A stretch of 59,015 bases of DNA from a virus. Its lineage: Duplodnaviria > Caudoviricetes. Below the pieces are notes generated by a model. That model was not told the DNA's origin. It saw only the letters and a list, made by a program, of their open reading frames with translations, and searched no databases. The stretch is from IMG/VR virus record IMGVR_UViG_3300032053_000084, positions 1 through 59,015 of that record, one strand, 5' to 3'. A program made the translations under genes and the position numbers. This document shows, piece after piece, positions 4,361-46,652 of the stretch; the first letter of the stretch is position 1; each line of letters begins with the position of its first letter.

Positions 4361-4370
4361 GAGGTGGATT

Positions 4371-4628: not shown

Positions 4629-4642
4629 GGAGATTGAATAAA

Positions 4643-5158
4643 ATGAAAAAAATTACAATAGCACTATTAGTCATATTGTTTATGTTGATTGGTTGTTCTA
4701 AAGATACTGTAAAGAAAGATACTCTCTCACAAAAAATTATGGATTTTGGAACATTCAAGGTGATTGTTCCCGCAGAACTTCCAGATTTTATGAAATGGGC
4801 TGGTAAAACAGCAATTGTTTATCCAGGTGAAGAATTTTTTGGAGTTATGGGATATAGAGGGGAAAATCCAGAAGATACTACTGAATTTATTTGGTTGTAT
4901 ATTGCCGTTGAACGGAAAAAAGTTAGAGATGGTTATGATGTAAAATCATATCTTATTGCCTTGAAGCATGGGTTTACAGATAAGGACGGGAAAGAAAAGA
5001 ACAGTATATCATATATTGATAAAGAGTATTGGACAACCGGGGTATGGTCAGGAACATTATATAAAGTTGATGATATACCAGATTTGAAAATTTTATCTGA
5101 TATGAAAGAAAAACAATTGTCAGAATTAGGTAAAAATTTAGGAGAAAAAAAATTTTAA
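4643..5158 (+). CDS. Putative lipoprotein
   Basis: MKKITIALLVILFMLIG-C signal peptide and lipobox. Confidence 0.65.
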   Translation: MKKITIALLVILFMLIGCSKDTVKKDTLSQKIMDFGTFKVIVPAELPDFMKWAGKTAIVYPGEEFFGVMGYRGENPEDTTEFIWLYIAVERKKVRDGYDVKSYLIALKHGFTDKDGKEKNSISYIDKEYWTTGVWSGTLYKVDDIPDLKILSDMKEKQLSELGKNLGEKKF

Positions 5159-5172
5159 ATAAGGAATAGGTT

Positions 5173-6060: not shown

Positions 6061-6962
6061 ATAAAATATCTAAAAGAAAAATAATTATAAACTCTTTACC
6101 AAAAGTAATTACACCACCCGCAACCATACAATTAAAAGAATTTAAAAAATTAAGTGGGAGAATAAATTGTGGATTAGGTCATATGATTTTTTGTAAGGCA
6201 CAACTTGATTCTGTAAAAGATCAGTATGAAGAAATAAAACTTGCGCCAGATTTAAAATGGCTTAGAATTAGTAGGCAAGAAGCATATGATGATCAACATA
6301 AATTTATCTTTAAATTTATGAAACTTCTTTTTGATAAACCGCCTTATATAATATCCGATGATCAAAACCTACCAGTAAAATATGGTGTTCCGTTTATGAG
6401 AGATGATGGAATTATGCCAGTGGTTCCTGATTTAGTAAAATATCTTTGTCGTGGAAAACCTCTTCCTACTAAACAAAAATATATTGTTCTTACAACAAAG
6501 GTAAGGGGTGTTGATATTATACAAACATTTCAAAGAAATCAAGATGAATTTTTTAGTATCCTACAGCAATTAGCAAGAAAATATCGTTTGATTATTTTAG
6601 GTGATAGGATAATTTGGCCAAATTTACTAAAATATACTTGTATATATACTGATTACATTAAAAATTTAAAAAAATATAATCTTACTGATTTAAGTATGGA
6701 TGATAGAAGAATATCAAGTCCTGATTTAAAAATGATTCAACATGATTGTATGATTATGAATGGTGCTGAAGCGGTAGTTACTTTTGGGAACGGTGGTAAT
6801 TTTAGTTTAGCAATAGCGTCAAGTAAAATTTTAGATTATAAAAATGATGGTGGACAAATGGAACCAGTTGAAACATATATGTTTGGTGAGCATTATGATA
6901 AAGACGGTAAATTTGTAACAAGAAATTATAAAAAATTTCTTGGAAAATTGGCTTCATTGTGA
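6057..6962 (+). CDS. Putative glycosyltransferase-like protein, paralog 2
   Basis: GLGHMIF, YIVLTTKVR, DCMIMNGAEAVVTFGNGGN. Confidence 0.5.
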   Translation: MNKISKRKIIINSLPKVITPPATIQLKEFKKLSGRINCGLGHMIFCKAQLDSVKDQYEEIKLAPDLKWLRISRQEAYDDQHKFIFKFMKLLFDKPPYIISDDQNLPVKYGVPFMRDDGIMPVVPDLVKYLCRGKPLPTKQKYIVLTTKVRGVDIIQTFQRNQDEFFSILQQLARKYRLIILGDRIIWPNLLKYTCIYTDYIKNLKKYNLTDLSMDDRRISSPDLKMIQHDCMIMNGAEAVVTFGNGGNFSLAIASSKILDYKNDGGQMEPVETYMFGEHYDKDGKFVTRNYKKFLGKLASL

Positions 6963-6969
6963 GGGATAA

Positions 6970-8115
6970 ATGATTCGTGAAAGAATAGCAGAAAAAATTA
7001 TGGTTCCTGTTTATAAACCATATCTTCCAGTATTAGTAAAGAATTATGCGAGAGATGCTATCAATAGCGGATGGATTTCAAGCAAAGGAATATATGTTCA
7101 ACTTGCAGAAAAGAAATTACGGGAATTGTTTGGATACAAATATGTTATATTGACAAGTAATGGAACTACCGCAATGCACTTGGTAGCAAAAGCATTAAAA
7201 TATAAGCATCCAAATATAAATTCATTGTATGTTCCAAACAATGTTTATGTTGCGGCATGGAATGCGTTCTTGTATGATAAAGATCATTACACCCTAATTC
7301 CTTTTGATGCTAATCTTGATACTTGGTGTTTTGATATAAATAGTTATAAAGAATATATTGAGAATTTTGGCTTACAATCCAAAACCCATGCGATGTTGGT
7401 TGTTCATAATATAAGCGGAATTGTGAACATACCAAAATTGAAAAGAGATTATCCTGAATTAATAATTGCGGAAGATAATTGTGAAGGATTTTTAGGTAAG
7501 CATGAAGGAAAATATACAGGAACAGAATCTTTATGTTCTGCTATATCTTTTTTTGGTAATAAATCAGTAACCGCAGGAGAAGGCGGGGCATTCATAACGA
7601 ATGATGAAGATATTTATTTATATATAGATCGTCTTCATAATCAAGGGTTATCTCAAAAGAGATTTATTCATAATGTTTTGGGATATAATTATAGAATGAC
7701 CAATTTACAAGCAGCAATTCTTTTTGGGCAATTGATGTGTATAAAAGATATTGTGAAGAAAAAGAAATCGTTGTTTGATTATTATAGATCGGAATTAAAA
7801 TCAGAAGATATTGAATTTCAAATTCCAGAGGAAGGATGTGATCTTTCAAATTGGATGTTTGGATTTAGAATACATAAACAAATAAGTTATGATAAAGCAG
7901 AATTATTTTTTAATGATAGAGGAATAGAAATAAGACCGATGTTCTACCCTATCAATAAACATGAATATCTTAAAAATATTACAGGGATAATGGATATTGC
8001 TACCAGATTAAATAAGGAGTGTATCTTGTTACCAAGTTATCCAGATATATCAGAAAAGGATAGAGAAAAAGTAGTAAGTGTGACTAAAAAATATATTGAG
8101 GAGATAAAAAAATAA
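6970..8115 (+). CDS. DegT/DnrJ/EryC1/StrS PLP aminotransferase (perosamine synthase-like)
   Basis: SNGTTAMHL, EDNCE, SFFGNKSVTAGEGG (PLP Lys), GYNYRMTNLQAA, LLPSYP. Confidence 0.92.
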   Translation: MIRERIAEKIMVPVYKPYLPVLVKNYARDAINSGWISSKGIYVQLAEKKLRELFGYKYVILTSNGTTAMHLVAKALKYKHPNINSLYVPNNVYVAAWNAFLYDKDHYTLIPFDANLDTWCFDINSYKEYIENFGLQSKTHAMLVVHNISGIVNIPKLKRDYPELIIAEDNCEGFLGKHEGKYTGTESLCSAISFFGNKSVTAGEGGAFITNDEDIYLYIDRLHNQGLSQKRFIHNVLGYNYRMTNLQAAILFGQLMCIKDIVKKKKSLFDYYRSELKSEDIEFQIPEEGCDLSNWMFGFRIHKQISYDKAELFFNDRGIEIRPMFYPINKHEYLKNITGIMDIATRLNKECILLPSYPDISEKDREKVVSVTKKYIEEIKK

Positions 8116-9470
8116 TGTCATTTATAAGAAGATATACCGTAGGAACCAATGTTACTATAACAGCGCCAGTAACGGCAGGCGGAACATATCAGTTTTATGA
8201 TTGGGAATATGATAACACACACCTTTCATATGATTTGGGTGCATTAATAACTACTGGGGTATTAAATAAATCATTAGATGCAAAATATTGGGGATTTGAG
8301 ATATTAAAAATTGGTGATTATGGATGGTATCCAAGACTCTCAGTGTATAATAATACAATATATATTATAGGAGAAGATTGGGTAGACGGTAATAGTTGTC
8401 AGTTTGTTTTATATAAAAGTACGGATAATGGAGATCATTGGACCAATTCTTTTGTAAATCCAGATAATAGTGATGTAATAACCGAACAACAAGAAATGAC
8501 AAGTGGTTCAATAAAAACCATTAGTGATGATATAATTTATTTATCGTATAATCATAAAGACATGTTATCAATAGTTAATCGTATGATATTGTTTACTAAA
8601 TCAATAAATGGTGGATCAACATGGTCAACACCAGTAATAGTAGAAGAAATGTCCCATCCTCAGGCAGTGAATTATGGATATACAAATATGTGTTGTCCAG
8701 ATGCAAATAATATTTTTATTTTTTATAATTATATTATGTATATAGTACCCTATTATTATTTTAAATTTGCTAAATCAATAGATGGTGGTGCTACTTGGGT
8801 AACATCAACCATTTATAATCCATCGTTTCTTGATAACGCATATATGGATAGTGATGCATATGATTCAAATCGTGTTGCGTGTGTTTTTCGTGAAGCCGTA
8901 GATAATTATACTGAACAATTAGTTGTAGAAATTACTACAGATGGGGGTTCTAATTTTACCAAAAAAATTATAGAAACAAGTCCATATGCATATATTGAAA
9001 CAGCACTTAGTTCAAGAATAAAATGGGTTGATTCAACCACGATATATATTGTGTCTAAAATGAACTCAGATCCATTATCTGAAATTGCATTTTATAAATC
9101 TACAAATAGCGGAGTAAATTGGACAAAAACAGTTATTTATTCATTTGATGAAAGTCTTGATAATAGTGATGATTGTATAGGACTTCATGTTGTTGATGCC
9201 AATACAATTTATGTTTTAAACAGTCTTGATCAATATGATGATAGTAGCAATAGTGGATTTGCAATTTATAAATCAATTAATGCAGGAGCAACATGGTCTA
9301 AGATTTATGAATATTATTTTTATGGTACTGAATATATGAGAAATAGAAGTGTTTCTGCTTGTGCTTTACATATTTCAGGAGATAAAATAATGTCATTTTT
9401 TTATGATTATAATTATAATACTGAGGGATATGATGCTATTTTATGGAAAAATTTTTATGTAGAACCATAA
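8115..9470 (+). CDS. Asp-box (BNR) beta-propeller protein, sialidase-like fold
   Basis: Six Asp-box motifs: KSTDNGDHW, KSINGGSTW, KSIDGGATW, TTDGGSNF, KSTNSGVNW, KSINAGATW. Confidence 0.8.
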   Translation: MSFIRRYTVGTNVTITAPVTAGGTYQFYDWEYDNTHLSYDLGALITTGVLNKSLDAKYWGFEILKIGDYGWYPRLSVYNNTIYIIGEDWVDGNSCQFVLYKSTDNGDHWTNSFVNPDNSDVITEQQEMTSGSIKTISDDIIYLSYNHKDMLSIVNRMILFTKSINGGSTWSTPVIVEEMSHPQAVNYGYTNMCCPDANNIFIFYNYIMYIVPYYYFKFAKSIDGGATWVTSTIYNPSFLDNAYMDSDAYDSNRVACVFREAVDNYTEQLVVEITTDGGSNFTKKIIETSPYAYIETALSSRIKWVDSTTIYIVSKMNSDPLSEIAFYKSTNSGVNWTKTVIYSFDESLDNSDDCIGLHVVDANTIYVLNSLDQYDDSSNSGFAIYKSINAGATWSKIYEYYFYGTEYMRNRSVSACALHISGDKIMSFFYDYNYNTEGYDAILWKNFYVEP

Positions 9471-9480
9471 GTTCGGAGGG

Positions 9481-9699
9481 ATGAAACTTATGCAAGTGTT
9501 AGTTAAACTTAAAGACGGAAGAGAAAAAAGATTAGATGTGAAATGGCCGGAAAAATTTGAAGAAGAATTACAATCCGTATATAATAGTCAATGGGAAAAA
9601 GAAATATCACGGATTCTTTGTGGTAGAATAATAGAAGAATTGTTATGGTGTAATATAACCTTTAAAAAAATAGAGTCAATAAATTTCGAGGAGGATTAA
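9481..9699 (+). CDS. Hypothetical protein
   Basis: GGAGG RBS; stop overlaps the next start. Confidence 0.6.
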   Translation: MKLMQVLVKLKDGREKRLDVKWPEKFEEELQSVYNSQWEKEISRILCGRIIEELLWCNITFKKIESINFEED

Positions 9700-10523
9700 T
9701 GGACAAAATTGTTTTAGTCGGTGAGATAGGTATTAACGCAAACGGTGATGTGGAAATTGCTAAAAAATTAATAGATGTAGCAAAAATAGCAGACTTTGAT
9801 TATGTGAAATTTCAGAAAAGATCCATTGATCTTGTTTATACAGAAGAAGAATTGAATGCCCCAAGGGAATCAAAATGGGGTACTACATTCAGAGAACAAA
9901 AGGATGGCCTGGAATTTGATCATGGTCAATATAATGAAATAAGTAGACATTGTATGAGGAATAAAATGAAATGGTTCGCAAGCCCGTGGGATGTTGAATC
10001 AGTAAGATTCCTTGAAAATTTTGACCCGCCTTATATAAAGATACCTTCCCCTCTTATTACTAAAATGGAATTACTGGAAGAAATAAAAAATACAGGAATG
10101 TCAGTTATCGTATCTACTGGAATGTCAACAAAAAATGAAGTTGATAAATGTGTTGACTATCTTGGAGATCAGGTTGAATACATTCTTGCGTGTACAAGCA
10201 CTTACCCCACACCTATTCAAGAAATGAATATGAATTTTATTAAAACCCTTAAAGAAGAATATCCAGAATATAAAATCGGATTTAGTAATCACAATCCAGG
10301 TCTTACATTTTGTATTATCGCAGGTGCGCTTGGTGCTGAAATGATAGAACTTCATATAACACTTGATCGTGCTATGTATGGATCAGATCAGGCTGCGAGT
10401 GTAGAGCCCGAAGGTGTTATGAAAATTGCTAAATATGCGAGAAGTATTCAAGCAGGCATGGGGGATGGAAAATGGACAATATTTCCAGGAGAAATTTCTA
10501 TACGAAAAAAACTCCGAAGATAA
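9699..10523 (+). CDS. neuB: N-acetylneuraminate synthase family (NeuB/SpsE-like), lacking the C-terminal AFP-like domain
   Basis: EIGINANG, VKFQKR, IVSTGMS, CTSTYP, IGFSNH, ELHITLDRAMYGSDQAASVEP. Confidence 0.88.
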   Translation: MDKIVLVGEIGINANGDVEIAKKLIDVAKIADFDYVKFQKRSIDLVYTEEELNAPRESKWGTTFREQKDGLEFDHGQYNEISRHCMRNKMKWFASPWDVESVRFLENFDPPYIKIPSPLITKMELLEEIKNTGMSVIVSTGMSTKNEVDKCVDYLGDQVEYILACTSTYPTPIQEMNMNFIKTLKEEYPEYKIGFSNHNPGLTFCIIAGALGAEMIELHITLDRAMYGSDQAASVEPEGVMKIAKYARSIQAGMGDGKWTIFPGEISIRKKLRR

Positions 10524-10524
10524 T

Positions 10525-11397
10525 ATGAGTAGAAAAATTTTAAGTGGACCGTCAAGCTGTATTTCAGGTCTTGTTTTGAAAGCAAAATTGAATTTAGGAA
10601 TAGGCTCTCTTATTCTAATGAAGGCACAGTTAGATGAAGTAAGAGATAAATTAAAGTTATATGTATCCCCTAATTGGGAATTGATAAACAAGTATCGTAA
10701 TGGAAGTGAAGATTATAAAAATTTCATACGAGAATTCTTTAAAATTTTATTCCCACCACCTTATATTATAACCGAAGATCAAGATTATCATGAAAGAGAT
10801 TATTGGTTATTTACTCATTTTGACAACATTCCTTTTATAATTCCAAAATGGAAAATCTTCACTAAAATATTCTGTAATCCAAAAATGCATATTGATATAG
10901 ATGAAAAATTTATAGTTATAACAACTAAAGTTAGATTATTCAAACAATCTAATTATAATAAAATAAAACCCATTATACAAGATGTAATAAAGGAATTAAG
11001 TAATAAATATAAGATTGTAGTGATGGGTGAAAAGGTTGTAGAAATGAATGCTGAATATTTACAATTACAAAAAAAAGATCAAATATTTTCTATATATAAT
11101 GATATTATTGAGTGTGTACCGAAAAATAGAATAATAGATACAACATATGATGGTCTTGGTATTACATCTCCTATTTTAAGCAGACTGAAAGAAGACTGTA
11201 CAATTATGAAAAATGCTGTTCGAACAATATGTATCGGTACGGGAGGGAATTTCATATTAGCGTTATCTTGTGGTTCTCCATTTATTTTAAGGCAACCAAA
11301 TATAAAAGAACCTTTTACTGAAATAACATTTAAAAATGATAATGATTATGTTATGAGCAATATAGAAAGATTTATTCAGGTTGGTAAAAGATTGTGA
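10525..11397 (+). CDS. Putative glycosyltransferase-like protein, paralog 3
   Basis: GIGSLIL, FIVITTKVR, DCTIMKNAVRTICIGTGGN; ATG 10525 follows the neuB stop. Confidence 0.5.
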   Translation: MSRKILSGPSSCISGLVLKAKLNLGIGSLILMKAQLDEVRDKLKLYVSPNWELINKYRNGSEDYKNFIREFFKILFPPPYIITEDQDYHERDYWLFTHFDNIPFIIPKWKIFTKIFCNPKMHIDIDEKFIVITTKVRLFKQSNYNKIKPIIQDVIKELSNKYKIVVMGEKVVEMNAEYLQLQKKDQIFSIYNDIIECVPKNRIIDTTYDGLGITSPILSRLKEDCTIMKNAVRTICIGTGGNFILALSCGSPFILRQPNIKEPFTEITFKNDNDYVMSNIERFIQVGKRL

Positions 11398-12380
11398 ATA
11401 AAATACCTAAAATAAAAGATTCTAACCAAAAATTTATTACTCCAAGAGAAGTTAAAAGAGAAATTACAATATATCCTCATTCTTTAAATATAAAACCTTG
11501 GTATAAAAAAGCTCTTCCGCAACCTGATTATGATTATGGTATTATACAGGCAAAATTAAATGCGGGGATTGGTGATCTTATTTACACTAAAGCAACACTC
11601 GATTCAATAAAACATAGGTTCAAAAGAATTATAGTTTCTGCTGATATGCATATGATTAGATTATATAGATCAAAAGAGTATGAGGATTTTGTATGGTATT
11701 TGTGTGAGCTTATGTTTTCGAAACCACCATACGAACTTACGAGAAATCAAAATCTCATAAATCGAAGTCAACATTCTTTATGGGAAGAAGATGGATTTTA
11801 TCCTGTAAGACCGAATAGAGAATATTTTTCAAAATTATTTTGTAGACCACTGAATGAAACATTTAGAAGAGATTATGTAGTAGTAACAACGAAAGTTAGA
11901 TGGTTCTCAAAAGTTAAATGGGAAGATACAAGAAATATTTTTTTCAATGCATTGAATACTATTTCATCAAAGTATGATATAATGATAATGGGTGAACAAA
12001 AGATAGAAGATACTTTAGAGTATAGGAAGATAAACAATAAAAGAAATGATGGTGGTGGTATATATACAATATATAAAGATTTGATAAAATATATAAACCC
12101 TGATGCCCTTATTGATAGAACAACACCATATATTTTGGTCAATCCCAGTATAAAACAATTTCATTATGATTGTTCTATTATGAATAAAGCACAAAAAGTA
12201 ATTTGTGTTGGTCATGGGGGAAATCATTGCCTTGCGCAATCCATATCAAACTGTATAACATTTCTTGATGATTTTAATAATTATACATTTATAGTAGAAC
12301 AAATGGTATATCCCAAAAACGATGATGATGCTGTAAGAGATATATATCTCTTAGATAAAATAATCAGAAAAATAAGATAG
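11394..12380 (+). CDS. Putative glycosyltransferase-like protein, paralog 4
   Basis: GIGDLIY, YVVVTTKVR, DCSIMNKAQKVICVGHGGN. Confidence 0.5.
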   Translation: MNKIPKIKDSNQKFITPREVKREITIYPHSLNIKPWYKKALPQPDYDYGIIQAKLNAGIGDLIYTKATLDSIKHRFKRIIVSADMHMIRLYRSKEYEDFVWYLCELMFSKPPYELTRNQNLINRSQHSLWEEDGFYPVRPNREYFSKLFCRPLNETFRRDYVVVTTKVRWFSKVKWEDTRNIFFNALNTISSKYDIMIMGEQKIEDTLEYRKINNKRNDGGGIYTIYKDLIKYINPDALIDRTTPYILVNPSIKQFHYDCSIMNKAQKVICVGHGGNHCLAQSISNCITFLDDFNNYTFIVEQMVYPKNDDDAVRDIYLLDKIIRKIR

Positions 12381-12386
12381 GAAATT

Positions 12387-13619
12387 ATGATAAAAGAAAT
12401 TGATAAATGTAGAATTTGTGGTAACACTGAATTGGTTCCGGTATTAGATATAGGAGAACATACAATATCCGCAGTTTTTCCTAAAACAAAAGATGAAAAG
12501 GTTATTTGTGGGCCATTAAGACTTGTTAGATGTAAAGGAGATAAGAAGAATACTTGCGGTCTTGTTCAACTAAAACATATTTTTGATCCAATGGATGTAT
12601 TTGGATGTAATTATGGTTATAGATCAAAATTGAATAGGCCAGCGGTTTCTCATTTATATGATATAGTTTCTAAAATATATGAGACAATAGATATAAAAAA
12701 TAGAGATATTATTGTTGATTTAGGTAGCAATGACGGAACAATGCTCGGAGCATATAAAACTAATGGTAATATTCTTGTAGGTATTGATCCTATTGGAAAA
12801 AGATTGAAAGAAAATTATCCTACTGGTTCAGTAATTATCCCCGAATACTTTTCAGAAAAGGGCTTCATAAATCATTTTGGTAATAAAAAAGCAAAAGTTA
12901 TAACTTCTATTTCCATGTTCTCAAATATAAACAATCCAATGGAGACAGCACAACAAATTTATAATATCCTTGCCGATGATGGTATATGGGTTTTAGAAGA
13001 TAATTCAATAATGGATATGATATTTTCTAATTCATATGATAATGTCTGTCACGAACATACAGTATATTATAGTATAAGTCAAATCAATTGGATTGCGAAT
13101 AAAATTGGATTTAAAATTATTGATGTAACAGAAAGTAAGGCAAGTGGTGGATGTTTTTTAATTACTCTTTCTAAAAAGAATGGAAATGGAATGGATTTAT
13201 CCAAATTATTGAATTATTTTGAAAGACATTTATATTCTGATAAAATATATAGAGATTTTGAATGTAATGTAATAACTCAGAGAAAAATTCTGGTTGATCT
13301 TATAGTAAATAAAATAAATGATAAAGGAAAAATTGTTATAGGTTATGGAGCATCATCAAGAGGAAATACAATTCTTCAATATTGTAATTTTACTGAAAAA
13401 GATATACCTTTTATTGTAGAAATAAATGAGGAGAAAATTGGTTCTTTTATGCCACAAACACTTATTCCTATAATATCAGAAAAAGAAGTTGAAAATATTA
13501 ATCCAGATTATTTTTTAATTTTACCTTGGTATTTCAAGGATAATATAATTGAGAAAGAAAAAAAATCAGGTAGAGGACTAATAATTCCTTTACCAATTGT
13601 AAGTGTTATAGGGGGATAA
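12387..13619 (+). CDS. NDP-hexose C-methyltransferase
   Basis: N-terminal CRICG Zn site, DLGSNDGTML, CHEH, GYGASSRGNT, ILPWYF. Confidence 0.88.
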   Translation: MIKEIDKCRICGNTELVPVLDIGEHTISAVFPKTKDEKVICGPLRLVRCKGDKKNTCGLVQLKHIFDPMDVFGCNYGYRSKLNRPAVSHLYDIVSKIYETIDIKNRDIIVDLGSNDGTMLGAYKTNGNILVGIDPIGKRLKENYPTGSVIIPEYFSEKGFINHFGNKKAKVITSISMFSNINNPMETAQQIYNILADDGIWVLEDNSIMDMIFSNSYDNVCHEHTVYYSISQINWIANKIGFKIIDVTESKASGGCFLITLSKKNGNGMDLSKLLNYFERHLYSDKIYRDFECNVITQRKILVDLIVNKINDKGKIVIGYGASSRGNTILQYCNFTEKDIPFIVEINEEKIGSFMPQTLIPIISEKEVENINPDYFLILPWYFKDNIIEKEKKSGRGLIIPLPIVSVIGG

Positions 13620-13620
13620 T

Positions 13621-13920
13621 ATGGCAGAAACATTGGGTATGTTGATGGATCGTTTAGGTGTCGCAAATTTAAAAATGTGGCAGTGTCAAGAAGTCTTATA
13701 TGAAATTCGAAGATTTACATTTGAAGAGTTTATGACAAAGTATTATTCAGAAGATGGTATGAAAATCCTTTTTGATATATTCAAGAAAGCGTGTGATCTG
13801 AATTATCAGCGCAATCAATTGATTGATGAAATAGATAAAACCGTTGTTACTATGATAAAAGATGGAGTAGATAAAAAAGACTTGGATAAATATATTCAAT
13901 TGAAACATAAAACCTATTAG
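13621..13920 (+). CDS. Small helical protein, DUF4254-like
   Basis: ETLGMLMDRL...LKMW and LNYQRNQLIDEID. Confidence 0.5.
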   Translation: MAETLGMLMDRLGVANLKMWQCQEVLYEIRRFTFEEFMTKYYSEDGMKILFDIFKKACDLNYQRNQLIDEIDKTVVTMIKDGVDKKDLDKYIQLKHKTY

Positions 13921-13931
13921 GAGAAAATGTT

Positions 13932-14348
13932 ATGTGTGGATATGATGAATGGAAGAAAGAAAATAAAACTAAACTCAAAAGGAAAATGGTTATTTATGTA
14001 GATGTGGATGAAACGGTAGCAATCACCCCTGAAAATAGAGATTATAATCAATCTATACCAAATAAAGAAATGATTTCAAACATCAATAGATTGGCTCATA
14101 TGGGCCATGAAATTCACTATTATACCGCAAGGGGATCAGGGTCCGGTAAGGATTGGTTCAATGTTACATATGATCAATTGGTTTATTGGGGTTGTAAATT
14201 TTTTGGCTTAACAATGGGAAAACCGATGTATGATTTTATTATAGATGATCGTTCTTTACGACCAGAAGAAACAGAATGGTTGATCAAAACAACACAAAAA
14301 ATGATGTGCGATGAAATTGATGCGGATATTGATGCGGAGATTATATAA
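13932..14348 (+). CDS. HAD-superfamily phosphatase (capsule-locus type)
   Basis: DVDET, YTARG, GKP, IDD. Confidence 0.8.
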   Translation: MCGYDEWKKENKTKLKRKMVIYVDVDETVAITPENRDYNQSIPNKEMISNINRLAHMGHEIHYYTARGSGSGKDWFNVTYDQLVYWGCKFFGLTMGKPMYDFIIDDRSLRPEETEWLIKTTQKMMCDEIDADIDAEII

Positions 14349-15235
14349 TGAAAATTGTTCCAAAAGTAATAAATGGGATGAAATTGTTTTTAGTTGAAGG
14401 CTGGCCCGGTATTCATTCTGAACTTATACAATGGAATGGTAAGGATGGGGAAGAGCCTCGCGAGCCGGAATTCATGTATGTTTTCAAGAAAGAACTTCCG
14501 GTAGATGGTATCATTATAGACCTTGGAGCAAACATTGGATACAATACCCTTTCAGCATCAAAACTTATAAAAGAAAAAAATGGTAAGGGAAGAATATATT
14601 CTATTGAACCGGATTCACGAAATATAGAACTTCTCGAAAGGGCTGTCAAGGAAAATAAGTGTGAGGATATAGTTTCTATACATCGTTGTGCTATCTATAA
14701 CAAAACTGGAAGAAAAGCGTTACATTTATCCAATCAAACAAATTTGAATAGTCTTATAAAAACAGAAAATACTATACAAACAATTGAAGTAGAAACATTT
14801 ACCTTAGAAGATTTTATGAGCGGAAAAGGATATCCGAATTTTATCAAAATGGATGTTGAAGGAGCAGAAGTAGAAGTCCTGGAAGGCGGTATGAAATTAT
14901 TTGAGAATAATTTTCCGTGTGGTATATTGATGGAAACACACCAAAAGATGTATACACCACAAAGAAACTTATCAAAACAATTGAAAAAATTGGTAGAAAA
15001 TGGGTTCAATATAAAAACAGTTATGAGCGCAGGGGTAGCAATACCCGATGTATTCAAAAAATATAAATATTATCCATCAATGATTTTTAATTCTGGTATA
15101 TTCAGCAGAGGATTATATAATGATATATCAAATGAACACGCTATTGAATTTGCTTCTAATATAATATATCAAAAAACTTCAACAGGTCATATTTCCCCGA
15201 AAGTGGTAAGAAGTATTTTGATTGAGAGAAAATAA
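14348..15235 (+). CDS. FkbM-family methyltransferase
   Basis: IDLGANIGY, SIEP, IKMDVEGAEVEVLEG. Confidence 0.9.
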   Translation: MKIVPKVINGMKLFLVEGWPGIHSELIQWNGKDGEEPREPEFMYVFKKELPVDGIIIDLGANIGYNTLSASKLIKEKNGKGRIYSIEPDSRNIELLERAVKENKCEDIVSIHRCAIYNKTGRKALHLSNQTNLNSLIKTENTIQTIEVETFTLEDFMSGKGYPNFIKMDVEGAEVEVLEGGMKLFENNFPCGILMETHQKMYTPQRNLSKQLKKLVENGFNIKTVMSAGVAIPDVFKKYKYYPSMIFNSGIFSRGLYNDISNEHAIEFASNIIYQKTSTGHISPKVVRSILIERK

Positions 15236-15541
15236 ATGCCAGAAAATTTTGATGATATACTTGAACCTGATATTCCAGAAACCGATGATGATTCTGAAAT
15301 TGAATTTGATGATGATATATCGTTAGAAGAGATTATCAAAGAAGTTATAGAACTTTTAGAAGAATATAAAAATGATAATGATGCTTGGGAAATTGTTGAT
15401 GACGAAGATGAAGACGAAGATGAGGATGAGGATGAGGATGAGGATGATAAAAAATGGGACTCTAAAGAAGTAGAAGATTATTTATGGAAACGGAAAGAAA
15501 GATGGAAAAAAGAAGATGAAGATGAAGCAAACGGATGCTAA
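15236..15541 (+). CDS. Highly acidic protein with (DE)n tract
   Basis: Asp/Glu-dominated; GATGAG-type microsatellite near 15400-15447. Confidence 0.65.
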   Translation: MPENFDDILEPDIPETDDDSEIEFDDDISLEEIIKEVIELLEEYKNDNDAWEIVDDEDEDEDEDEDEDEDDKKWDSKEVEDYLWKRKERWKKEDEDEANGC

Positions 15542-15556
15542 AAAGGAGAAAATATA

Positions 15557-15805
15557 ATGTTTGATGATATAATTAGTAAATCAGTAAAAGTTTGTGATAT
15601 TCTTCAAGAAGGAATGTATATCATCTATGTTGATAAAGATATTAGTATTCACCATAGAATGATTTTTGATGAAATCAAAAAAATAATTCTTGATACTGAA
15701 TGGTGGTTAGACCTAATTAATAAAGATACAATTATTCATACAAGAGTTTGGAAATATTATAAAGATGGTCAACATTTTATATATCCATTTTATAGGGGGT
15801 TATAA
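15557..15805 (+). CDS. Hypothetical protein (MFDDII N-terminus)
   Basis: AGGAG RBS; stop overlaps the next start. Confidence 0.6.
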   Translation: MFDDIISKSVKVCDILQEGMYIIYVDKDISIHHRMIFDEIKKIILDTEWWLDLINKDTIIHTRVWKYYKDGQHFIYPFYRGL

Positions 15806-16356
15806 TGCTTTGTATTGATATCGGTGGAGCTAAAAGATTTACAGAAACAATAATTCCCTGGAAAGTATTAGATTTGAAAGGAGAAGATTATAAATATGAT
15901 CTCAATTCAGGACAACCTTTTCCTCTTGAAGATAATAGTGTTGATAATTATTATACTTCTCATACTCTCGAACATATAGATATAAAAAATTTATTATTTG
16001 TATTCAAGGAAATTTGTAGAACATTGAAACAAAAAGGCTTGGTTCGTATAGTAGTGCCTAATTTTGAAATAGGTATGTTATGGTATCAGAATAGAAATAA
16101 ATTATTGTTTGATAAACTGGCACCGGGGGTTCCACATCATTATCCACCAACATATCTTGGTAGACTTACAGCGTGGATACTTACCCCTAACGATCACAAA
16201 GGGGCATTTGATAAAGAAACTCTTGAATGGTATTTGAATACAGCAGGATTTGTAAATATAAAGAAAATGAAATATGATTCTCATTCTGCTATATTTGAAG
16301 GAAAGGATTTTATCAGATATTCTATGTATTCTCTTTATTATGAAGCACAAAAATAG
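15805..16356 (+). CDS. Class I SAM methyltransferase
   Basis: IDIGG, DNSVD..YTSHTLEH, RTLKQKGLVRIVVP. Confidence 0.82.
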   Translation: MLCIDIGGAKRFTETIIPWKVLDLKGEDYKYDLNSGQPFPLEDNSVDNYYTSHTLEHIDIKNLLFVFKEICRTLKQKGLVRIVVPNFEIGMLWYQNRNKLLFDKLAPGVPHHYPPTYLGRLTAWILTPNDHKGAFDKETLEWYLNTAGFVNIKKMKYDSHSAIFEGKDFIRYSMYSLYYEAQK

Positions 16357-18402: not shown

Positions 18403-18431
18403 ATTATAACACATTTCAACTATATTGTAAA
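18403..18431 (-). promoter_or_regulatory. Sigma70-type promoter
   Basis: TTTACA-17 nt-TATAAT. Confidence 0.75.
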
Positions 18432-18626
18432 CTATGGTTTACAGCCTTTACAGTTACCGCAAGAAACATCTTCATCATCAGCGTCATCTTCAAATTTCCA
18501 ATTTGTAGTCCCTAAAGTTTTACTGATTGATTTTTTCATTGCGTCAAGAGTTTCATCATCATCTGTTATTTTTGGTTTTGGTGGTTCTGGAAATAATCCA
18601 CTATTTCCGATTATATCATCAAACAT
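18432..18626 (-). CDS. Hypothetical protein (MFDDII N-terminus, C-terminal CxxCxxC)
   Basis: AGGAG RBS, operon position. Confidence 0.55.
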   Translation of the reverse strand: MFDDIIGNSGLFPEPPKPKITDDDETLDAMKKSISKTLGTTNWKFEDDADDEDVSCGNCKGCKP

Positions 18627-21272: not shown

Positions 21273-21543
21273 TTATTCTTCTCTTTTTTTATCAAACAAT
21301 TTTTACAAAAACATTCCCCAATTGATTGTCTTCCGCCAAGAGCCCAACTTCCCATTTCCGGCTCTTCATGTTCACATTTTGAACAAGACCATCCATTACA
21401 AACACCTGATGAATGTCCCGATGGGCACATTTCAATTTTACAATATGGACAAGATATAATAAACATTTATCTACTCCACCCCATAATAAGAAAAAGGAAT
21501 ATCAATATAAATACTATAATTACAAAATAAGAAAGATATATTA

Positions 21544-21750
21544 TCATTTTTTATATTTTCCAAAATCAGTGATAGACATTTTTATTTGAGCACCAGAGCC
21601 GAGCATTGTTACTTTGAATTGTAATTCTCTTCCAGAATTTGCGACAATACGAAATAAGGATCGTGCCTTATATTCCTCAAATGTAAACATTTTATCCAGA
21701 TTGATTTCTGGTCTTTTTTTCTTTTTGTTCTCCCGTAGTATGTTTATCAT
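21544..21750 (-). CDS. Hypothetical protein
   Basis: AGGAG RBS, downstream of a promoter. Confidence 0.5.
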   Translation of the reverse strand: MINILRENKKKKRPEINLDKMFTFEEYKARSLFRIVANSGRELQFKVTMLGSGAQIKMSITDFGKYKK

Positions 21751-21811
21751 AAGAACTCCTAACCTACGACCTTACAGTAAAAAAACATAAAATTCCTATT
21801 ATTCTCACTTT

Positions 21812-21840
21812 ATTATACCAAATTCGTATTGTATTGTAAA
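21812..21840 (-). promoter_or_regulatory. Sigma70-type promoter
   Basis: TTTACA-17 nt-TATAAT. Confidence 0.75.
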
Positions 21841-21843
21841 CAC

Positions 21844-30113: not shown

Positions 30114-31010
30114 TTACAATACCCGTTTTCTATGTTTTCCAACCAAACTTTCCAAATCATTTACCAATTCAGAATATGAATTTGGTTTAGCAATAGCCTC
30201 GTCTAAAGAACCATAATGTTGCTCCAAACAATTCAAGAGCAATTCTTTGATTTTATTTTCATCAGGCCCATATGGAAGAGTGCTTTTAGCATACACTTCT
30301 TCAAGGGACTTTTCTTTCATGGTGAAATATTCAAAAATTTGTGTTTCTGTCCATTCACCTCTACGGATAGATTTCAATTGTTCCCTGTTTCGGGTAACAT
30401 CAAGATCACCCTCCGTCAAGATCATTTCCACTTCATTCAATAATCGAACAACGTGATAAGCGAATTTTACATCATAACCAAATTTTTCAACAATTTCTTT
30501 TCGCTTTCCTTCTGGCTTTTTTGTATCCATTTTATGCATCTGACTATATGCATAACCTTTGAATTTATGCCAGCATCCTTTGTGAAGGAACATTCTCCGA
30601 TTCTCACGAACCAAATTTCCGATTGCGGTAGAATGCAAAACGCATCTTTGCGGAACGAAAAGACTGTCAATCATATTTGGATTATTATCCATACACAATT
30701 GAAAATATTTGACAATAGAATAGATTTGTAAATCGTATTCTTTTCTTTCGTCTTTACATTCGATATGCGCTTGCTGATATTGTTCAAACCGATTTGTTTG
30801 CTTTCCGAAGCCTGAGATTTCACCAATCAAATGAGGAAAAATCATATACTTCGGTGGAATGGCAAAACCATAAATATCCATATCAGAATTATCAGAAGAA
30901 ACACCATAAGCGATACTTCCCATAATTACTTCATAATGAACATTCATTGCCAAAAATCCAGGTGGATTGATCAATCCTTTTTTACATAATCTGTCAACAA
31001 GACTTCCCAT
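30114..31010 (-). CDS. Pol-beta superfamily predicted nucleotidyltransferase
   Basis: GSIAYG...SDMD, NPNMID, GYDVKFAYHVVRLL. Confidence 0.85.
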   Translation of the reverse strand: MGSLVDRLCKKGLINPPGFLAMNVHYEVIMGSIAYGVSSDNSDMDIYGFAIPPKYMIFPHLIGEISGFGKQTNRFEQYQQAHIECKDERKEYDLQIYSIVKYFQLCMDNNPNMIDSLFVPQRCVLHSTAIGNLVRENRRMFLHKGCWHKFKGYAYSQMHKMDTKKPEGKRKEIVEKFGYDVKFAYHVVRLLNEVEMILTEGDLDVTRNREQLKSIRRGEWTETQIFEYFTMKEKSLEEVYAKSTLPYGPDENKIKELLLNCLEQHYGSLDEAIAKPNSYSELVNDLESLVGKHRKRVL

Positions 31011-34491: not shown

Positions 34492-35355
34492 TCATTTATC
34501 TATAAAGTATTTTATCATATTCACGGTGTATTGTAAACTCATTTCAGGATATTTATTTTTGATAGTTTCGTGTATGTCATAAATAAAACCAAAATGTGTA
34601 CTTTCATAAGAATTACAATACATTGCGATATCTATGCTTTTTTCTATTGTGGTAGGAAATCCATTGAAAAATCTATGTTCATCTGGTATTAGGGGAATAC
34701 AATTGTTTTGAAGAGCATCGAAAAATGATTGATCTAAATAACCTATTTTATAATTTTGAATTGAACCTAAAATAACAGTACATTTTGCGTCTACATATGG
34801 TATCGGAGCACTATTTCCTAAACTCAATTTGGTAAAATATTCTTGTTCTTTTCCTTTGTCTATTTTTGCAGAATAATAAACACCACCAAATTTTTTATGG
34901 TATTCAAGAATGTATTTTTCAAATGAAAAAATCTTTTCTATCAAATCCCCGTTATAAACTAATGAAAATTTTCTTTTCTCATCAATGGGATTGATCGTCA
35001 AGTTTTCTTTATCTTTTATTTTGATGGAGAATGGTAGATAGGTAAATTCTGTACGGAAATTCAATGCGGGTTCAAACATAATAGTTCCCGCTTTCTTGAA
35101 TAATTTATATTCATCGGTTGTAATTCCAAGATATCTGTCAAAAATCATCATTGGAATTTTCTTCGCATAACAATGAGTAACAACTTGAATTTGACGAGCT
35201 AATAGAGGCGATTTACGATTGCTTGGAGTCCAATCAAGAAAAATCGCCTCCATATTATTATCATCCTTATTGGTAATATCTAAAGTTGTAAATTCTTTTT
35301 TTAGTTCATCAATAAGGTCTTGGTTTTTTACATTATATAAGGCTAATCGGCGCAT
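34492..35355 (-). CDS. Hypothetical protein, possible GT-B-like C-terminal domain
   Basis: LVYNG and FFDALQNNCIPLI weakly resemble the GT-B nucleotide-binding half; overlaps the Ro60 stop. Confidence 0.4.
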   Translation of the reverse strand: MRRLALYNVKNQDLIDELKKEFTTLDITNKDDNNMEAIFLDWTPSNRKSPLLARQIQVVTHCYAKKIPMMIFDRYLGITTDEYKLFKKAGTIMFEPALNFRTEFTYLPFSIKIKDKENLTINPIDEKRKFSLVYNGDLIEKIFSFEKYILEYHKKFGGVYYSAKIDKGKEQEYFTKLSLGNSAPIPYVDAKCTVILGSIQNYKIGYLDQSFFDALQNNCIPLIPDEHRFFNGFPTTIEKSIDIAMYCNSYESTHFGFIYDIHETIKNKYPEMSLQYTVNMIKYFIDK

Positions 35356-36799
35356 TGATTCCACCTGTTAGAGATACAATAATGTCATCCAATTTAGTTT
35401 CCCAATTAGATTCATTTTCTTTCTCTAAACTCACAAGGTAATCTACAACCGCATCGGAAAATCCATGAATAACCTTATAACCTTTATCTTCTTCAATACC
35501 TTCCTTTTCAGGAGCGACATTGATTACATATGCTTTATCTACTTTTGCTTTGGTAACTACATTTTTATCCTGCGCTTGTTCGTCTGTTATGATAATTATT
35601 CTATCATATTCACGAATCTTATTATTGATAACTCCTAATGCTTTTGCTAAATAAGTTGCGTTGTGGCTTTGGCTATGATTGATAGCATTTGCAAGGGAAA
35701 ATCCTCTCAACCTGTTGTCTACAGAGGCAATATCAGAAGAAAATGAGAATACCGCAACATTCTCACAAATCTCTCTCAAAAGAAGACCAATACCGCAAGC
35801 AACATCAATACGGGTAGTTTCTTTCTGTCTGCTAAATCTTTTTTGAGTCAAAGGGGCATTCATAGAACCGGAAACGTCAACTAATAAAACAGTTCTACCT
35901 GAAAGACGATCTTTATTTTCAAGACATTTGAACATCGCCTTTTCTAACATTTCTCCCATTGAAGGAGCAAACTTTTGGGCGGTGATAAAGCGATAAGGTA
36001 ATACCTTATCGAATTTGATAGTATCAAATCCATGAATAAGAACATCCTTTGTAACTCCTGCATCAATCATACCTCTCAAATTACGAATGAATGCTAAAGC
36101 ACCAAGTTTACCTTCACTGATAAGCCTTTCAAAAGTTTCTTTTTTGTCTTTACCAGCAGACAATTCTACTTCCCAAGTATCGGCCGCTGTCAGATTACCG
36201 TCAATCAATTTTTTCCAAATTAGAGATTGTTCCTCATTTCTTGGTTTAGGATGAACAAGAAACATAACATCTTTTAGAGAAATACCTTTTTCTTCCCTGT
36301 ATTTCGCAAGATTATAAGCATTGAACTTGCCGAAAGCATTTGCTAAACCTTTCTTTACCTGTGAAGAAATAGGTTGCTTGATCAATTTTACATTTGAAAC
36401 TTCTTTTCTATCTGAAATTCTTGTATCCCAAGAAAAAATTGTACTTCCACAAGAATTTTGTGCTTCTGTTTCTAATGTAATAGGATCAAGGAAATATAGA
36501 TATAGAAAATATGCTAATTCATCAGCCCTTTGAATAACTCTGTTTAGAGTAGTAGCAACCAAATGTTTATGAGTATTATGTTTTGCCATCTGGCGAACAA
36601 TCCATAATGGAGCATGTCTCAAATTATATTTGGAACGTGCTTCAATTGCAAGGGAGGCAACAATTTCAGGATTTACTTGCGGGACAAGTGAAGCAATCCT
36701 ATTAGAAATGGATAAACCATTTTCATAGAATGTATCTTCGAATAACAAGCAATTCAAAACGGAACGTCTTAGTTGCTGATCTTTACGTAATTCTAACAT
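35333..36799 (-). CDS. rsr: Ro60/Rsr (TROVE plus vWA) RNA-binding protein
   Basis: LRRSVLNCLLFEDTFYE, IQRADEL, KKGLA.AF.KF..Y.LAKY, LKDVMFLVHPKP, TWEVELS, ALAFIRNLR, VLPYRF; vWA DVSGSM and ITDEQ; AGGAGG RBS. Confidence 0.93.
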   Translation of the reverse strand: MLELRKDQQLRRSVLNCLLFEDTFYENGLSISNRIASLVPQVNPEIVASLAIEARSKYNLRHAPLWIVRQMAKHNTHKHLVATTLNRVIQRADELAYFLYLYFLDPITLETEAQNSCGSTIFSWDTRISDRKEVSNVKLIKQPISSQVKKGLANAFGKFNAYNLAKYREEKGISLKDVMFLVHPKPRNEEQSLIWKKLIDGNLTAADTWEVELSAGKDKKETFERLISEGKLGALAFIRNLRGMIDAGVTKDVLIHGFDTIKFDKVLPYRFITAQKFAPSMGEMLEKAMFKCLENKDRLSGRTVLLVDVSGSMNAPLTQKRFSRQKETTRIDVACGIGLLLREICENVAVFSFSSDIASVDNRLRGFSLANAINHSQSHNATYLAKALGVINNKIREYDRIIIITDEQAQDKNVVTKAKVDKAYVINVAPEKEGIEEDKGYKVIHGFSDAVVDYLVSLEKENESNWETKLDDIIVSLTGGINAPISLI

Positions 36800-36816
36800 A
36801 TTGACCTCCTAAAAAT

Positions 36817-36914
36817 TGAGAATATGAAAGGAACAGGCGACAAAAGTTATGCCCTTGCGGGCGGTCATTTTTAGAGATGAAGTAACTCTCATCTATCACC
36901 ACAACATATTCTCA
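36817..36914 (-). ncRNA. Y RNA-like unit 4 (98 nt; GNRA hairpin module)
   Basis: Closing stem TGAGAATATG/CATATTCTCA; TGGTGATAGATGAGAGTTACTTC...AACTTTTGTC..TGTTCC; inner GCCC-GCAA-GGGC. Confidence 0.75.
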
Positions 36915-36925
36915 TATAAAATTGA

Positions 36926-37084
36926 TGTTATCAGGGAATAATCGAAAGAGACTTTTTATAACAGCTGTGCTACCGTTACACTAAATTTCCTTACGAAACC
37001 TTTCGGTTGTCCTGGGGAAACTTGGGAATTGAACCCATCATGCTGTTTCCATGCGAAGTATCTCTATCTACACCACCGATAACA
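36926..37084 (-). ncRNA. yrlA: YrlA-type Y RNA with circularly permuted tRNA-like domain (159 nt)
   Basis: Closing stem TGTTATCGG/CTGATAACA; TGGTGTAGATAGAGATACTTC; ACAGC/GCTGT stem enclosing a T arm (TGGG-TTCAATT-CCCA), a 7-bp acceptor analog AGTTTCC/GGAAATT, then TA and a D arm (GTGT-AACGGTA-GCAC). Confidence 0.85.
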
Positions 37085-37098
37085 AAATAAACATAAAA

Positions 37099-37179
37099 TG
37101 TAAATTAGAGGAATAAACAATAAAAGTCTTTTTTCATCAGTATAGTGAAGTAACTCTCATCTACACCATCTAATTTACA
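37099..37179 (-). ncRNA. Y RNA-like unit 2 (81 nt; minimal)
   Basis: Closing stem TGTAAATTAGA/TCTAATTTACA; TGGTGTAGATGAGAGTTACTTC...ACTTTTATT..TATTCC. Confidence 0.75.
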
Positions 37180-37188
37180 AAATCAAAA

Positions 37189-37385
37189 AGATGAATAAGG
37201 ATCAAAAAGATAAGGCTGCCATAGGTACAACCCGATAATTGGCTTTCATACAATCATGTATACCGTTCCAAAGACGGAATATGAAGGTGCCAGTCTGTTA
37301 TTGTGTGACCACTCACACCCTGGCGGTTATGGTTTCATTTTCAATTTCAATTTGAAGTATCCTTATCAACCACCATTATTCATCT
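37189..37385 (-). ncRNA. Y RNA-like unit 1 (197 nt; large multibranch module)
   Basis: Closing stem AGATGAATAA/TTATTCATCT; TGGTGGTTGATAAGGATACTTC pairing with CCTTATC; inner stems CCATA/TATGG, GCCAG/CTGGC, GTGTGA/TCACAC, TTCATA/TATGAA. Confidence 0.72.
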
Positions 37386-37398
37386 AAATTCTACTTAT

Positions 37399-37427
37399 AG
37401 TATAACATAAACTGATAAAATTGTAAA
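37399..37427 (-). promoter_or_regulatory. Sigma70-type promoter of the Y RNA array-Ro60 operon
   Basis: TTTACA-17 nt-TATACT with extended TG; predicted start a few nt before unit 1. Confidence 0.8.
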
Positions 37428-37431
37428 CATA

Positions 37432-37954
37432 CTATTTTTTGGGAATAACAACTGCTCCAAGTTTTTCCTTCGGCGGAACTTTCAATGCTTTTGGTGCAGG
37501 AAGCCCAAGTTTAAAAATCTGTTTCAGAACTGAATCAGAAAGAGCATCCAATCTCATCTGTGATCCGATACTTGTAAAATTACATCTTTTTCCCCAATAT
37601 CTTTGAATGTAAGCCATTGCTTCTTCATTTGATCCGGCAGCCACCATTGCTGTCCACGCATTCATATCGGGTGGAACTTCATACTCAAGTCGATAAATAT
37701 ACACTTCTTTTAGTTTCATACAACACTCCTTGTTATTGTTTTATATCTTCTACCAATAATTCATATTTTGGAGAATATTCATATCTCGCAGGTTTTATAC
37801 TTTTCACATCGGTTATAATATAATATGTAATCCACTGACCCGCTTGTTTTGTATCTTTTTGTTCTGCAAGTTTATCGGGTAAAAATATTTGTCCAACTTC
37901 TATTTTTTCAGGTTCCTTTTCTAATCTTTCAAACTCTGATATTGTCATTATCAT
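37432..37954 (-). other. Two hypothetical ORFs (37432-37719, 37733-37954)
   Basis: RBSs; downstream of TATAAATA. Confidence 0.55.
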
Positions 37955-46254: not shown

Positions 46255-46283
46255 ATTTTACTATATTTTAAGGGAATTGTAAA
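46255..46283 (-). promoter_or_regulatory. Sigma70-type promoter
   Basis: TTTACA-17 nt-TAAAAT. Confidence 0.6.
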
Positions 46284-46652
46284 CTACTTTGATGGGATAA
46301 CTAATTTTTTTTCAATATTTTTTTTAGTTTGTTCAAATGATTCATTTACTTCGAACATTTTTAGTGTTAGCCTATCATGATTTTTCTTCGGTGCTTTGAT
46401 TTTATCAATAGGTATGCCTTCATCCAAACAAAAATCAAAAATATATTTTCCACGATACGCTCTTTTCAATTCATTATTCAATTTTTCTTTCAATTCAAAA
46501 ATCACTTTCTCTGAAAGAAGAAACTTCTGACATATCTCTGATACAATAATATTATAGTCTGATTTTTTATTTACCAGTTTAATACTTAATGATCTAAATA
46601 TATTTGTTTTCTCATCTGTGTTAGAAAATGAGAGATACGCCAGAAGCCGCAT
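46284..46652 (-). CDS. Hypothetical protein
   Basis: TAAGG RBS; last ORF of the structural block. Confidence 0.55.
   Translation of the reverse strand: MRLLAYLSFSNTDEKTNIFRSLSIKLVNKKSDYNIIVSEICQKFLLSEKVIFELKEKLNNELKRAYRGKYIFDFCLDEGIPIDKIKAPKKNHDRLTLKMFEVNESFEQTKKNIEKKLVIPSK

Follow-up and report, generated by a model that had tools for sequence, protein, structure and literature searches.

The window analysed here, a 59,015-base virus contig from the IMG/VR database, contains a gap of 632 bases (36800-37431) without open reading frames (ORFs) directly upstream of a gene for a Ro60-type protein. This gap very probably encodes four Y RNAs of the class known from bacteria and phages, which share a Ro60-docking handle, differ in their internal modules, and would be made as one RNA and bound by the Ro60 protein of the phage. 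The anatomy of the gap, the conservation and covariation of the handle at other phage loci, the identity of the family with published phage Y RNAs and its linkage to Ro60 genes are all observed and carry this reading. Transcription and processing of the units, their binding by Ro60 and their function would follow the bacterial and phage precedents that are named below.

Anatomy of the four-unit gap and its Ro60 gene

The gap consists of four hairpin-closed units which span 36817-37385 on the minus strand, as do the genes around Ro60 in this part of the window. Read from 5' to 3' on that strand, with lengths in nucleotides (nt), base pairs (bp) or amino acids (aa), the elements are as follows.

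37399..37428, minus strand: promoter-like site GTTTACAAT...TGTTATACT (TTTACA-17-TATACT with a TG extension), which ends about 13 nt before unit 1
37189..37385, minus strand: unit 1, 197 nt, closed by a perfect 10-bp terminal stem, AGAUGAAUAA/UUAUUCAUCU
37099..37179, minus strand: unit 2, 81 nt, closed by an 11-bp terminal stem
36926..37084, minus strand: unit 3, 159 nt, closed by a 9-bp terminal stem including one G-U pair
36817..36914, minus strand: unit 4, 98 nt, closed by a 10-bp terminal stem
36805..36810, minus strand: AGGAGG ribosome-binding site of the Ro60 gene, 6 nt past unit 4 and 5 nt ahead of the ATG at 36799
35333..36799, minus strand: gene for a Ro60-type protein of 488 aa with TROVE and vWA domains, assigned by Pfam, PHROG and structure relatives

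The four terminal stems are unrelated to each other in sequence, and the linkers between the units consist of A and U only (9, 14 and 11 nt). At 18-586 nt ahead of the Ro60 ATG, the units fall within the limit of 4 kb from a Ro60 ortholog, on its strand, that was applied by Chen et al. 2014. On the 5' side every unit carries UGGUG(N0-1)U(A/U)GAU, an inner-helix strand and (A/U)UACUUC, and on the 3' side the partner of the inner helix followed by ..(A/U)UCC. The individual 5' motifs are TGGTGGTTGATAAGGATACTTC (unit 1), TGGTGTAGATGAGAGTTACTTC (unit 2), TGGTGTAGATAGAGATACTTC (unit 3) and TGGTGATAGATGAGAGTTACTTC (unit 4), and their 3' partners end in GATCC, ATTCC, ATTCC and GTTCC, respectively. 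All four units form a stem-bulge-stem from paired 5' and 3' ends that carry the motif. The minimum free energy (MFE) fold of the whole gap consists of four independently closed domains (z -3.2), and folded singly the units reach z values of -2.1, -3.8, -3.7 and -3.7 in the order 1 to 4.

An earlier reading of this region, made by a model from the letters alone (the sequence-only reading), had described units of these four lengths, each with its own 9-11-bp stem of unrelated sequence, a common 5' motif and a 3' partner ending in TCC, a promoter before unit 1 and the Ro60 ribosome-binding site after unit 4. All of this holds, coordinates included, on the minus strand; the motif pair is present in all four units and AGGAGG runs from 36810 to 36805. 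Its further claim that the inner helix covaries is weakly borne out among the four units alone, because units 2 and 4 have the same 5' strand (their 18-nt 5' handle strands are identical), and strongly borne out across other loci, where the real evidence for covariation lies.

The protein encoded next to the gap has a TROVE domain (the HEAT-repeat ring; Pfam 64 bits, cut-off 23) followed by a vWA domain with a MIDAS motif (VWA_2 31 bits, cut-off 27). It matches PHROG 850, 'RNA-binding protein', at 1.6e-40, and among solved structures it is closest to that of Thermus phage phiLo Ro60 (9KOP/9L5Y, E 4e-22), with which the MIDAS motif DVSGS aligns. The identity to the CcrColossus protein is 42%.

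The handle at other phage Ro60 loci

DNA was fetched from 14 viral contigs around genes for relatives of the Ro60 protein with 35-46% identity, and the named phages crAss001, cr106_1, Xanthomonas phage Tenjo and Caulobacter phage CcrColossus were added. Nearly all of the fetched loci contain rows of like units beside Ro60. A covariance model of the handle, R1, was built from 18 short units, among them units 2 and 4 of the window but neither unit 1 nor unit 3. When R1 is run against the whole window with default filters it gives three matches, which are all inside the gap (unit 4 with 64.3, unit 2 with 60.0 and unit 3 with 41.0 bits). With the filters off unit 1 is added with 26.6 bits (E 9e-6), and the next match has 10.9 bits. 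R1 aligns full length to all four units, and its match to the gap is far beyond chance.

Over 170,846 bases, comprising the window and 16 Ro60 loci, R1 finds 55 units at E≤1e-3, none of which is further than about 1.3 kb from a Ro60 ORF. The Ro60 strand is used by 51 of the 55. The remaining four form an array upstream of Ro60 at one locus (L014, 2433-2854, minus strand of the locus), which lies on the opposite strand and is divergently transcribed.

The pairing of the handle is maintained by compensatory changes. For the 18 units aligned by MAFFT on sequence only, the RNAalifold consensus has 16 pairs, 15 of them with compensatory changes; 88.3% of the cells are paired compared to 57.7% after shuffling, and the covariation score is 0.80 against 0.26, which none of 500 shuffles reaches, while partners slid along the alignment give at most 0.27. 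In the alignment of all 55 units 16 of 16 pairs show double changes, 92.2% of the cells are paired (57.4% shuffled) and 330 cells hold double changes (102 shuffled). The score is 0.90 against 0.23, again reached by 0 of 500 shuffles, and slid partners give at most 0.20.

The most constant letters of the handle are G12 and U.CUUC, found in 55 of 55 units, and the UU of UUCC in 54 of 55; part of this constancy is circular, because R1 was trained on sequences with these letters. A pairing of GAAG with CUUC within the handle was considered and ruled out, as U31 is invariant while its would-be partner varies between A, U and C without covariation.

To what extent such arrays are usual was assessed at 23 loci for whose choice only the Ro60 protein was used (L001-L018 and L026-L030, with two pairs of near-duplicates among them). 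At least one R1 match at E≤0.01 is present at 21 of the 23. At 13 of the 23 there are at least three matches at E≤1e-3, with a maximum of eight in CcrColossus and six at L002. Four units are therefore typical; arrays are usual beside phage Ro60 genes, and the window is a new example of a known system.

The exact 17-mer common to units 2 and 4 was also used for a scan of 2.9 million viral contigs. It occurs at five loci (L021-L025), and each of the five has a Ro60 homologue (33-41% identical) adjoining an array of 3-5 R1 units. This 17-mer is made up of the 5' strand of the inner helix and UUACUUC (window 36870-36900 and 37150-37170), and it is thus retained in phages whose Ro60 is only 33-41% identical. 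The comparison of the sequences indicates that the RNA handle is either better conserved than the Ro60 protein or exchanged between phages.

Rows of units were also seen in crAss-like phages. In the cultured gut phage crAss001 (NC_049977.1, L015) R1 units lie at 4411-4494, 4505-4582 and 4984-5129 (59.3, 23.4 and 24.5 bits), and in its relative cr106_1 (L016) at 4319-4401 and 4416-4489. In both phages they are downstream of the TROVE gene (gp96), in a gap without any annotated feature. The TROVE gene of crAss001 is early and stranded RNA-seq data exist (PMC8375218). No relevant publication linking crAss-like phages to Y RNAs was found, and no published description of four or more Y RNAs arrayed in a phage; subscription papers were outside both searches.

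Internal modules and relation to known Y RNAs

Chen et al. 2014 (PMC4201824) described YrlA-like RNAs near Ro60 in 254 bacteria and 22 phages and characterised them by a tRNA-like domain and the 5' motif GNCGAAN0-1G. Unit 3 of the window combines the Ro handle with a permuted tRNA-like module and is thus of the YrlA type. The module contains a V hairpin, a T arm GGGUUCAAUUCCC, an 8-bp acceptor-like stem with a GAAA-capped extension and a D arm UAGUGUAACGGUAGCAC. A second covariance model, R2, was made from 14 tRNA-like units of other phages and contains none from the window. It matches unit 3 over its full length (model positions 1-134) at E 1.4e-14 (66.1 bits), and the T arm, the acceptor-like stem and the D arm are all aligned; the MFE fold of unit 3 shows the same hairpins as this alignment. 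On these grounds unit 3 is predicted to be a YrlA-type tRNA mimic, as had been proposed.

The other modules are of different kinds. In unit 2 the handle carries a loop of about 20 nt, a minimal type that appears comparable to the simple hairpin Y RNAs YrlB and Yrn2 of Chen et al. In unit 4 the 3' strand of the handle is the canonical CGCCUGUUCC, and the module contains a GCCC-GCAA-GGGC hairpin. The minimal loop and the GNRA hairpin of the sequence-only reading are thereby both recovered. Its multibranch module in unit 1 fares less well: a large module of about 150 nt is present, enclosed by the handle UGGUGGUUGAUAAGGAUACUUC ... CCUUAUCUUUUUGAUCC, a 7-bp inner helix and ACUUC, while its fold is unstable, with a centroid that differs from the MFE structure (z -2.1). 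No relative of this module was detected, and Rfam has no match to unit 1. Unit 1 as a degenerate YrlA is also unsupported, since R2 gives it only 10.1 bits (E 0.91) with the wrong 3' end.

The link to published Y RNAs comes from CcrColossus, where three R1 matches (L018 2413-2548, 2084-2250 and 1912-2052) coincide with the YrlA coordinates of Table S2 in PMC4201824. The family found in the window is therefore assigned, by sequence, to the published bacterial and phage Y RNA class, in agreement with the earlier claim of Y RNA-type genes beside a phage Ro60 gene. In CcrColossus eight tandem R1 units are found upstream of Ro60 (1677-2872), of which three are the published YrlAs; the five extra units mostly lack a full tRNA-like domain.

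Variation of the tRNA-like part was noticed in other phages. At L007 (2717-2849) and L013 (about 2730-2860) the module has its D, anticodon-like and T arms in normal order and not in the permuted order of YrlA, and positions 7-64 of the Rfam tRNA model match inside the L013 unit (2777-2836). In Brevundimonas phage vB_BpoS-Gurke (L026) an annotated tRNA-Ser (2227-2301) falls within a 134-nt R1 match (2228-2361), which is one of five units upstream of the Ro60 gene. This tRNA-Ser may be a YrlA-type Y RNA that was annotated as a tRNA.

Several findings weigh against the assignment of the gap to Ro60-bound Y RNAs. The Rfam YrlA model RF02553 (gathering score 69 bits), which had been proposed as a check, has no match in the window even at E≤10. 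The literal 5' motif GNCGAAN0-1G, the CGAA of the phiLo Yrl RNAs, occurs in none of the four units. The window protein, at 20.9 bits, stays below the cut-off of 900 for the bacterial Rsr equivalog (NCBIfam NF041674). No R1 match was obtained at two of five further phage Ro60 loci, those of Ralstonia phage RsoM2USA and of the archaeal virus HGTV-1. Unit 1 is low-scoring, is missed by R1 with default filters and has an unstable module, and it may be decaying. Finally, the invariant positions of R1 bias what R1 can find, and the 55-unit alignment was fitted to R1, which inflates its pairing somewhat; the MAFFT alignment is the unfitted control.

Three of these points can be qualified. RF02553 scores the three published CcrColossus YrlAs with only 29.9, 30.5 and 42.3 bits, all below its threshold. 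The model is therefore too narrow for the phage members, and its silence in the window says little. By its NCBIfam score the protein is a divergent phage Ro60 and no Rsr equivalog. As to CGAA, its place is taken in the window by UGUAG, UGGUUG and UGAUAG, that is by GGUGUAG in units 2 and 3, GGUGAUAG in unit 4 and GGUGGUUG in unit 1, where U replaces the C and the first A. Of the 55 aligned units, 32 have U and 23 have C at the C position, and at the position of the first A 29 have A, 21 have U and 5 have C. The aligned position is thus conserved as YG(A/U)AG, with GGUGUAG as a mainstream phage variant, because U is common at both positions. In phiLo mutation of CGAA reduces Ro60 binding 3-4 fold (PMC12135203).

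Among the closest known systems is that of phiLo, where Ro60 was found to bind both of the Yrl RNAs encoded ahead of it and to enter ternary complexes with PNPase of the host (PMC12135203). As in the window, Y RNA-like genes with a stem-bulge-stem handle immediately precede a Ro60 gene of the phage itself, on its strand. The phiLo system differs in having two RNAs, whose binding to Ro60 was shown by experiment, against four that are predicted from sequence in the window; in its literal CGAA, compared to the UG(N)UAG-type variants; and in its modules, for which the part of PMC12135203 available reports no tRNA-like one, while the window has one in unit 3. In CcrColossus, too, a phage Ro60 gene is preceded by a row of Y RNAs. 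For this phage PMC4201824 gives three members, all tRNA-like (R1 finds eight), in contrast to one tRNA-like and three other units in the window.

In Mycobacterium smegmatis a single precursor is processed into YrlA and YrlB, whose genes are upstream of rsr (PMC4201824). This locus and the Salmonella rsr-yrlBA-rtcBA locus resemble the window in that one tRNA-like and at least one simpler Y RNA lie beside rsr or Ro60. However, these loci are cellular, contain two RNAs and in Salmonella are under RtcR/sigma-54 control, while the window has a phage promoter motif and neither rtcB nor rtcA adjoining. Tethering of PNPase is known from Deinococcus radiodurans and Salmonella (Chen 2013/2014, via PMC4201824). 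Human Y1, Y3, Y4 and Y5 likewise are four RNAs with one Ro60-binding stem and a differing loop module, and UGGUG of the window resembles the vertebrate 5'-strand motif GGUCCGA that is contacted by Ro60 (quoted in PMC4201824), a likeness that need not mean homology of the RNAs. The vertebrate Y RNAs come from separate Pol III genes, without an operon and without a tRNA-like module, in contrast to the array of the window with its tRNA-like unit 3.

Transcription, alternative explanations and gene neighbourhood

The promoter-like site ahead of unit 1 agrees with the consensus at 10 of 12 positions and in addition has TG. The motif GTTTAC-N17-19-TAWAMT is found five times in the window, always on the minus strand, compared to 0.23 copies expected, and 0 of 100 shuffles reach five. 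The copies found in the motif scan have the form GTTTACAAT...TA(T/A)A(A/C)T.

18403-18432, minus strand: motif copy
21812-21841, minus strand: motif copy
34509-34538, minus strand: motif copy
37399-37428, minus strand: motif copy ahead of unit 1
46255-46284, minus strand: motif copy

It is therefore a recurrent putative promoter motif of the phage, and probably represents the early promoter class of this phage; we take it to resemble the early promoters of T4. Behind another copy, an ORF-poor stretch (21273-21811) contains small ORFs and no unusual structure (z -0.6). The lone terminator-like site on the minus strand is inside unit 1 and weak, and no convincing terminator was found between the array and the Ro60 start. 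Because of this weak sole site and the ribosome-binding site 6 nt past unit 4, transcription is likely to read through the array into Ro60.

From these elements and the precedents above the following sequence of events is proposed. Transcription would most likely start at an early-type promoter of the phage itself and yield one RNA that comprises the array and continues into the Ro60 coding region, and this precursor would be cut in its A/U-only linkers of 9-14 nt. The phage Ro60 ring would then bind and stabilise every product via the common handle, which comprises a terminal stem of 9-11 bp specific to each unit, an asymmetric internal loop with UGGYG(A/U)AG on the 5' and ..YUGUUCC on the 3' side, a short inner helix and the near-invariant UUACUUC. 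The modules to be presented would be a large one of unknown type (unit 1), a minimal loop (unit 2), a circularly permuted tRNA mimic of YrlA type (unit 3) and a GNRA-capped hairpin (unit 4). Such ribonucleoproteins (RNPs) could tether Ro60 to different RNA enzymes of host or phage, PNPase being the known example, or gate the Ro60 cavity, so that RNA decay, repair or quality control would be re-directed in the infected cell. The sequence-only reading had presented this as a phage adaptor toolkit. The idea is overstated as a novelty, since it is essentially the published model of multiple Y RNAs (Chen 2014, PMC4201824); arrays are also in print, with three YrlAs in CcrColossus (PMC4201824) and two Yrl RNAs in phiLo (PMC12135203).

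An improbable alternative is that only some units work and that unit 1, perhaps with others, is a decaying duplicate kept by chance in an AT-rich spacer. The handle of unit 1 is indeed the most divergent (GGUGGUUGAU, GAUCC), its score is the lowest and is obtained with the filters off only, the fold of its module is unstable, and the identical 18-nt strand in units 2 and 4 points to local duplication. However, unit 1 retains its perfect 10-bp terminal stem, a 7-bp inner helix and ACUUC, and long units score low elsewhere as well because of their large insertions; the published YrlA at L018 1912-2052, for instance, has 31.9 bits with R1.

Quite improbable is also that the four domains are never released and work in cis instead, forming a structured leader at the 5' end of the Ro60 mRNA, by which Ro60 would autoregulate its own translation or mRNA stability. 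The short distance of 6 nt between unit 4 and the ribosome-binding site, together with the missing terminator between array and gene, would suit such a leader. The ribosome-binding site and the ATG are however outside the terminal stem of unit 4 and are not occluded in the fold. At other loci the units lie downstream of Ro60 (crAss001, cr106_1 and a Microcystis phage) or on the opposite strand (L014) and therefore cannot be a leader there, which makes this explanation unlikely; the upstream RNAs of M. smegmatis, moreover, are processed and bound as separate species (PMC4201824).

A third possibility, degenerate tRNA genes or tRNA pseudogenes, or else a mobile repeat without connection to Ro60, is rejected: the T- and D-arm-like hairpins of unit 3 and the frequent position of phage Ro60 loci among tRNA genes could suggest it, but ARAGORN reports 0 tRNA or tmRNA genes in the whole window, Rfam has no match in the whole window at the gathering score and only chance-level snoR17 and Atu_C9, neither YrlA nor tRNA, at E≤10 in 36700-37500, three of the four units have no tRNA-like part, the element common to the units is the Ro-type handle, and R1 has no match elsewhere in the window nor away from Ro60 in the approximately 171 kb searched.

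For released Y RNAs bound by Ro60, a further role can be imagined. A coliphage Bas63 Ro60-like protein is reported to counter the Ppl defence system (preprint PMC11482910), and a counter-defence role for phage Ro60 RNPs is possible. More specifically, the arrays might serve as exchangeable adaptors or decoys for counter-defence, in which each module engages its own host RNA enzyme or defence nuclease and Ro60 keeps hold of the common handle; we regard this as a tentative and rather unlikely idea. If it were true, the module of about 150 nt in unit 1 would be a new RNA domain for a further partner, and UUACUUC, whose U.CUUC is more constant than CGAA (55 of 55 units), would be a second, undescribed recognition element of the handle.

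For the window itself the result is mainly one of annotation, with four unannotated non-coding RNA genes and a promoter. Of wider use is that rows of Y RNAs come to light at most of the examined phage Ro60 loci when the model describes the handle only and not the tRNA-like domain. The gain amounts to eight units in CcrColossus, where three were published, and at least three in crAss001, where none is annotated. With such a model Y RNA modules could be catalogued at little cost, and tests of what phage Ro60 RNPs do in infection come within reach.

The record has a CheckV completeness of 25%. The window encodes UvsX, SbcCD and ThyX as well as the T4-type baseplate proteins gp5, gp6 and gp25, and from the baseplate genes, UvsX and SbcCD it is therefore judged to be a fragment of a large myovirus, from sediment. 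An origin from Crassvirales had been suspected because of blastn matches to the TROVE genes of cr106_1 and cr112_1 and a common SPFH gene further along; it is ruled out by the same T4-type genes together with UvsX and SbcCD.

The last 32 nt of the Ro60 gene are shared with a 290-aa ORF (34492-35364, minus strand). This ORF belongs to no family of Pfam, PHROG or NCBIfam, is placed by the Atlas among GT-B glycosyltransferases, including T4 glucosyltransferase-like clusters, and was not found at the other fetched Ro60 loci. For these reasons it is an unlikely partner of Ro60. On the same strand, 4.3 kb beyond Ro60, a 298-aa nucleotidyltransferase of the RlaP family is encoded (30114-31010, minus strand; PF10127, 'RNA repair pathway DNA polymerase beta family', 72.9 bits), which may belong to the same RNA-repair theme as Ro60.

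On the plus strand, 583-16356 is a block of sugar-modifying genes, which encode a 774-aa double GDP-mannose dehydratase/epimerase, a DegT aminotransferase and several methyltransferases. Inside this block, at 2907-3320, a SET-domain protein of 137 aa is encoded.

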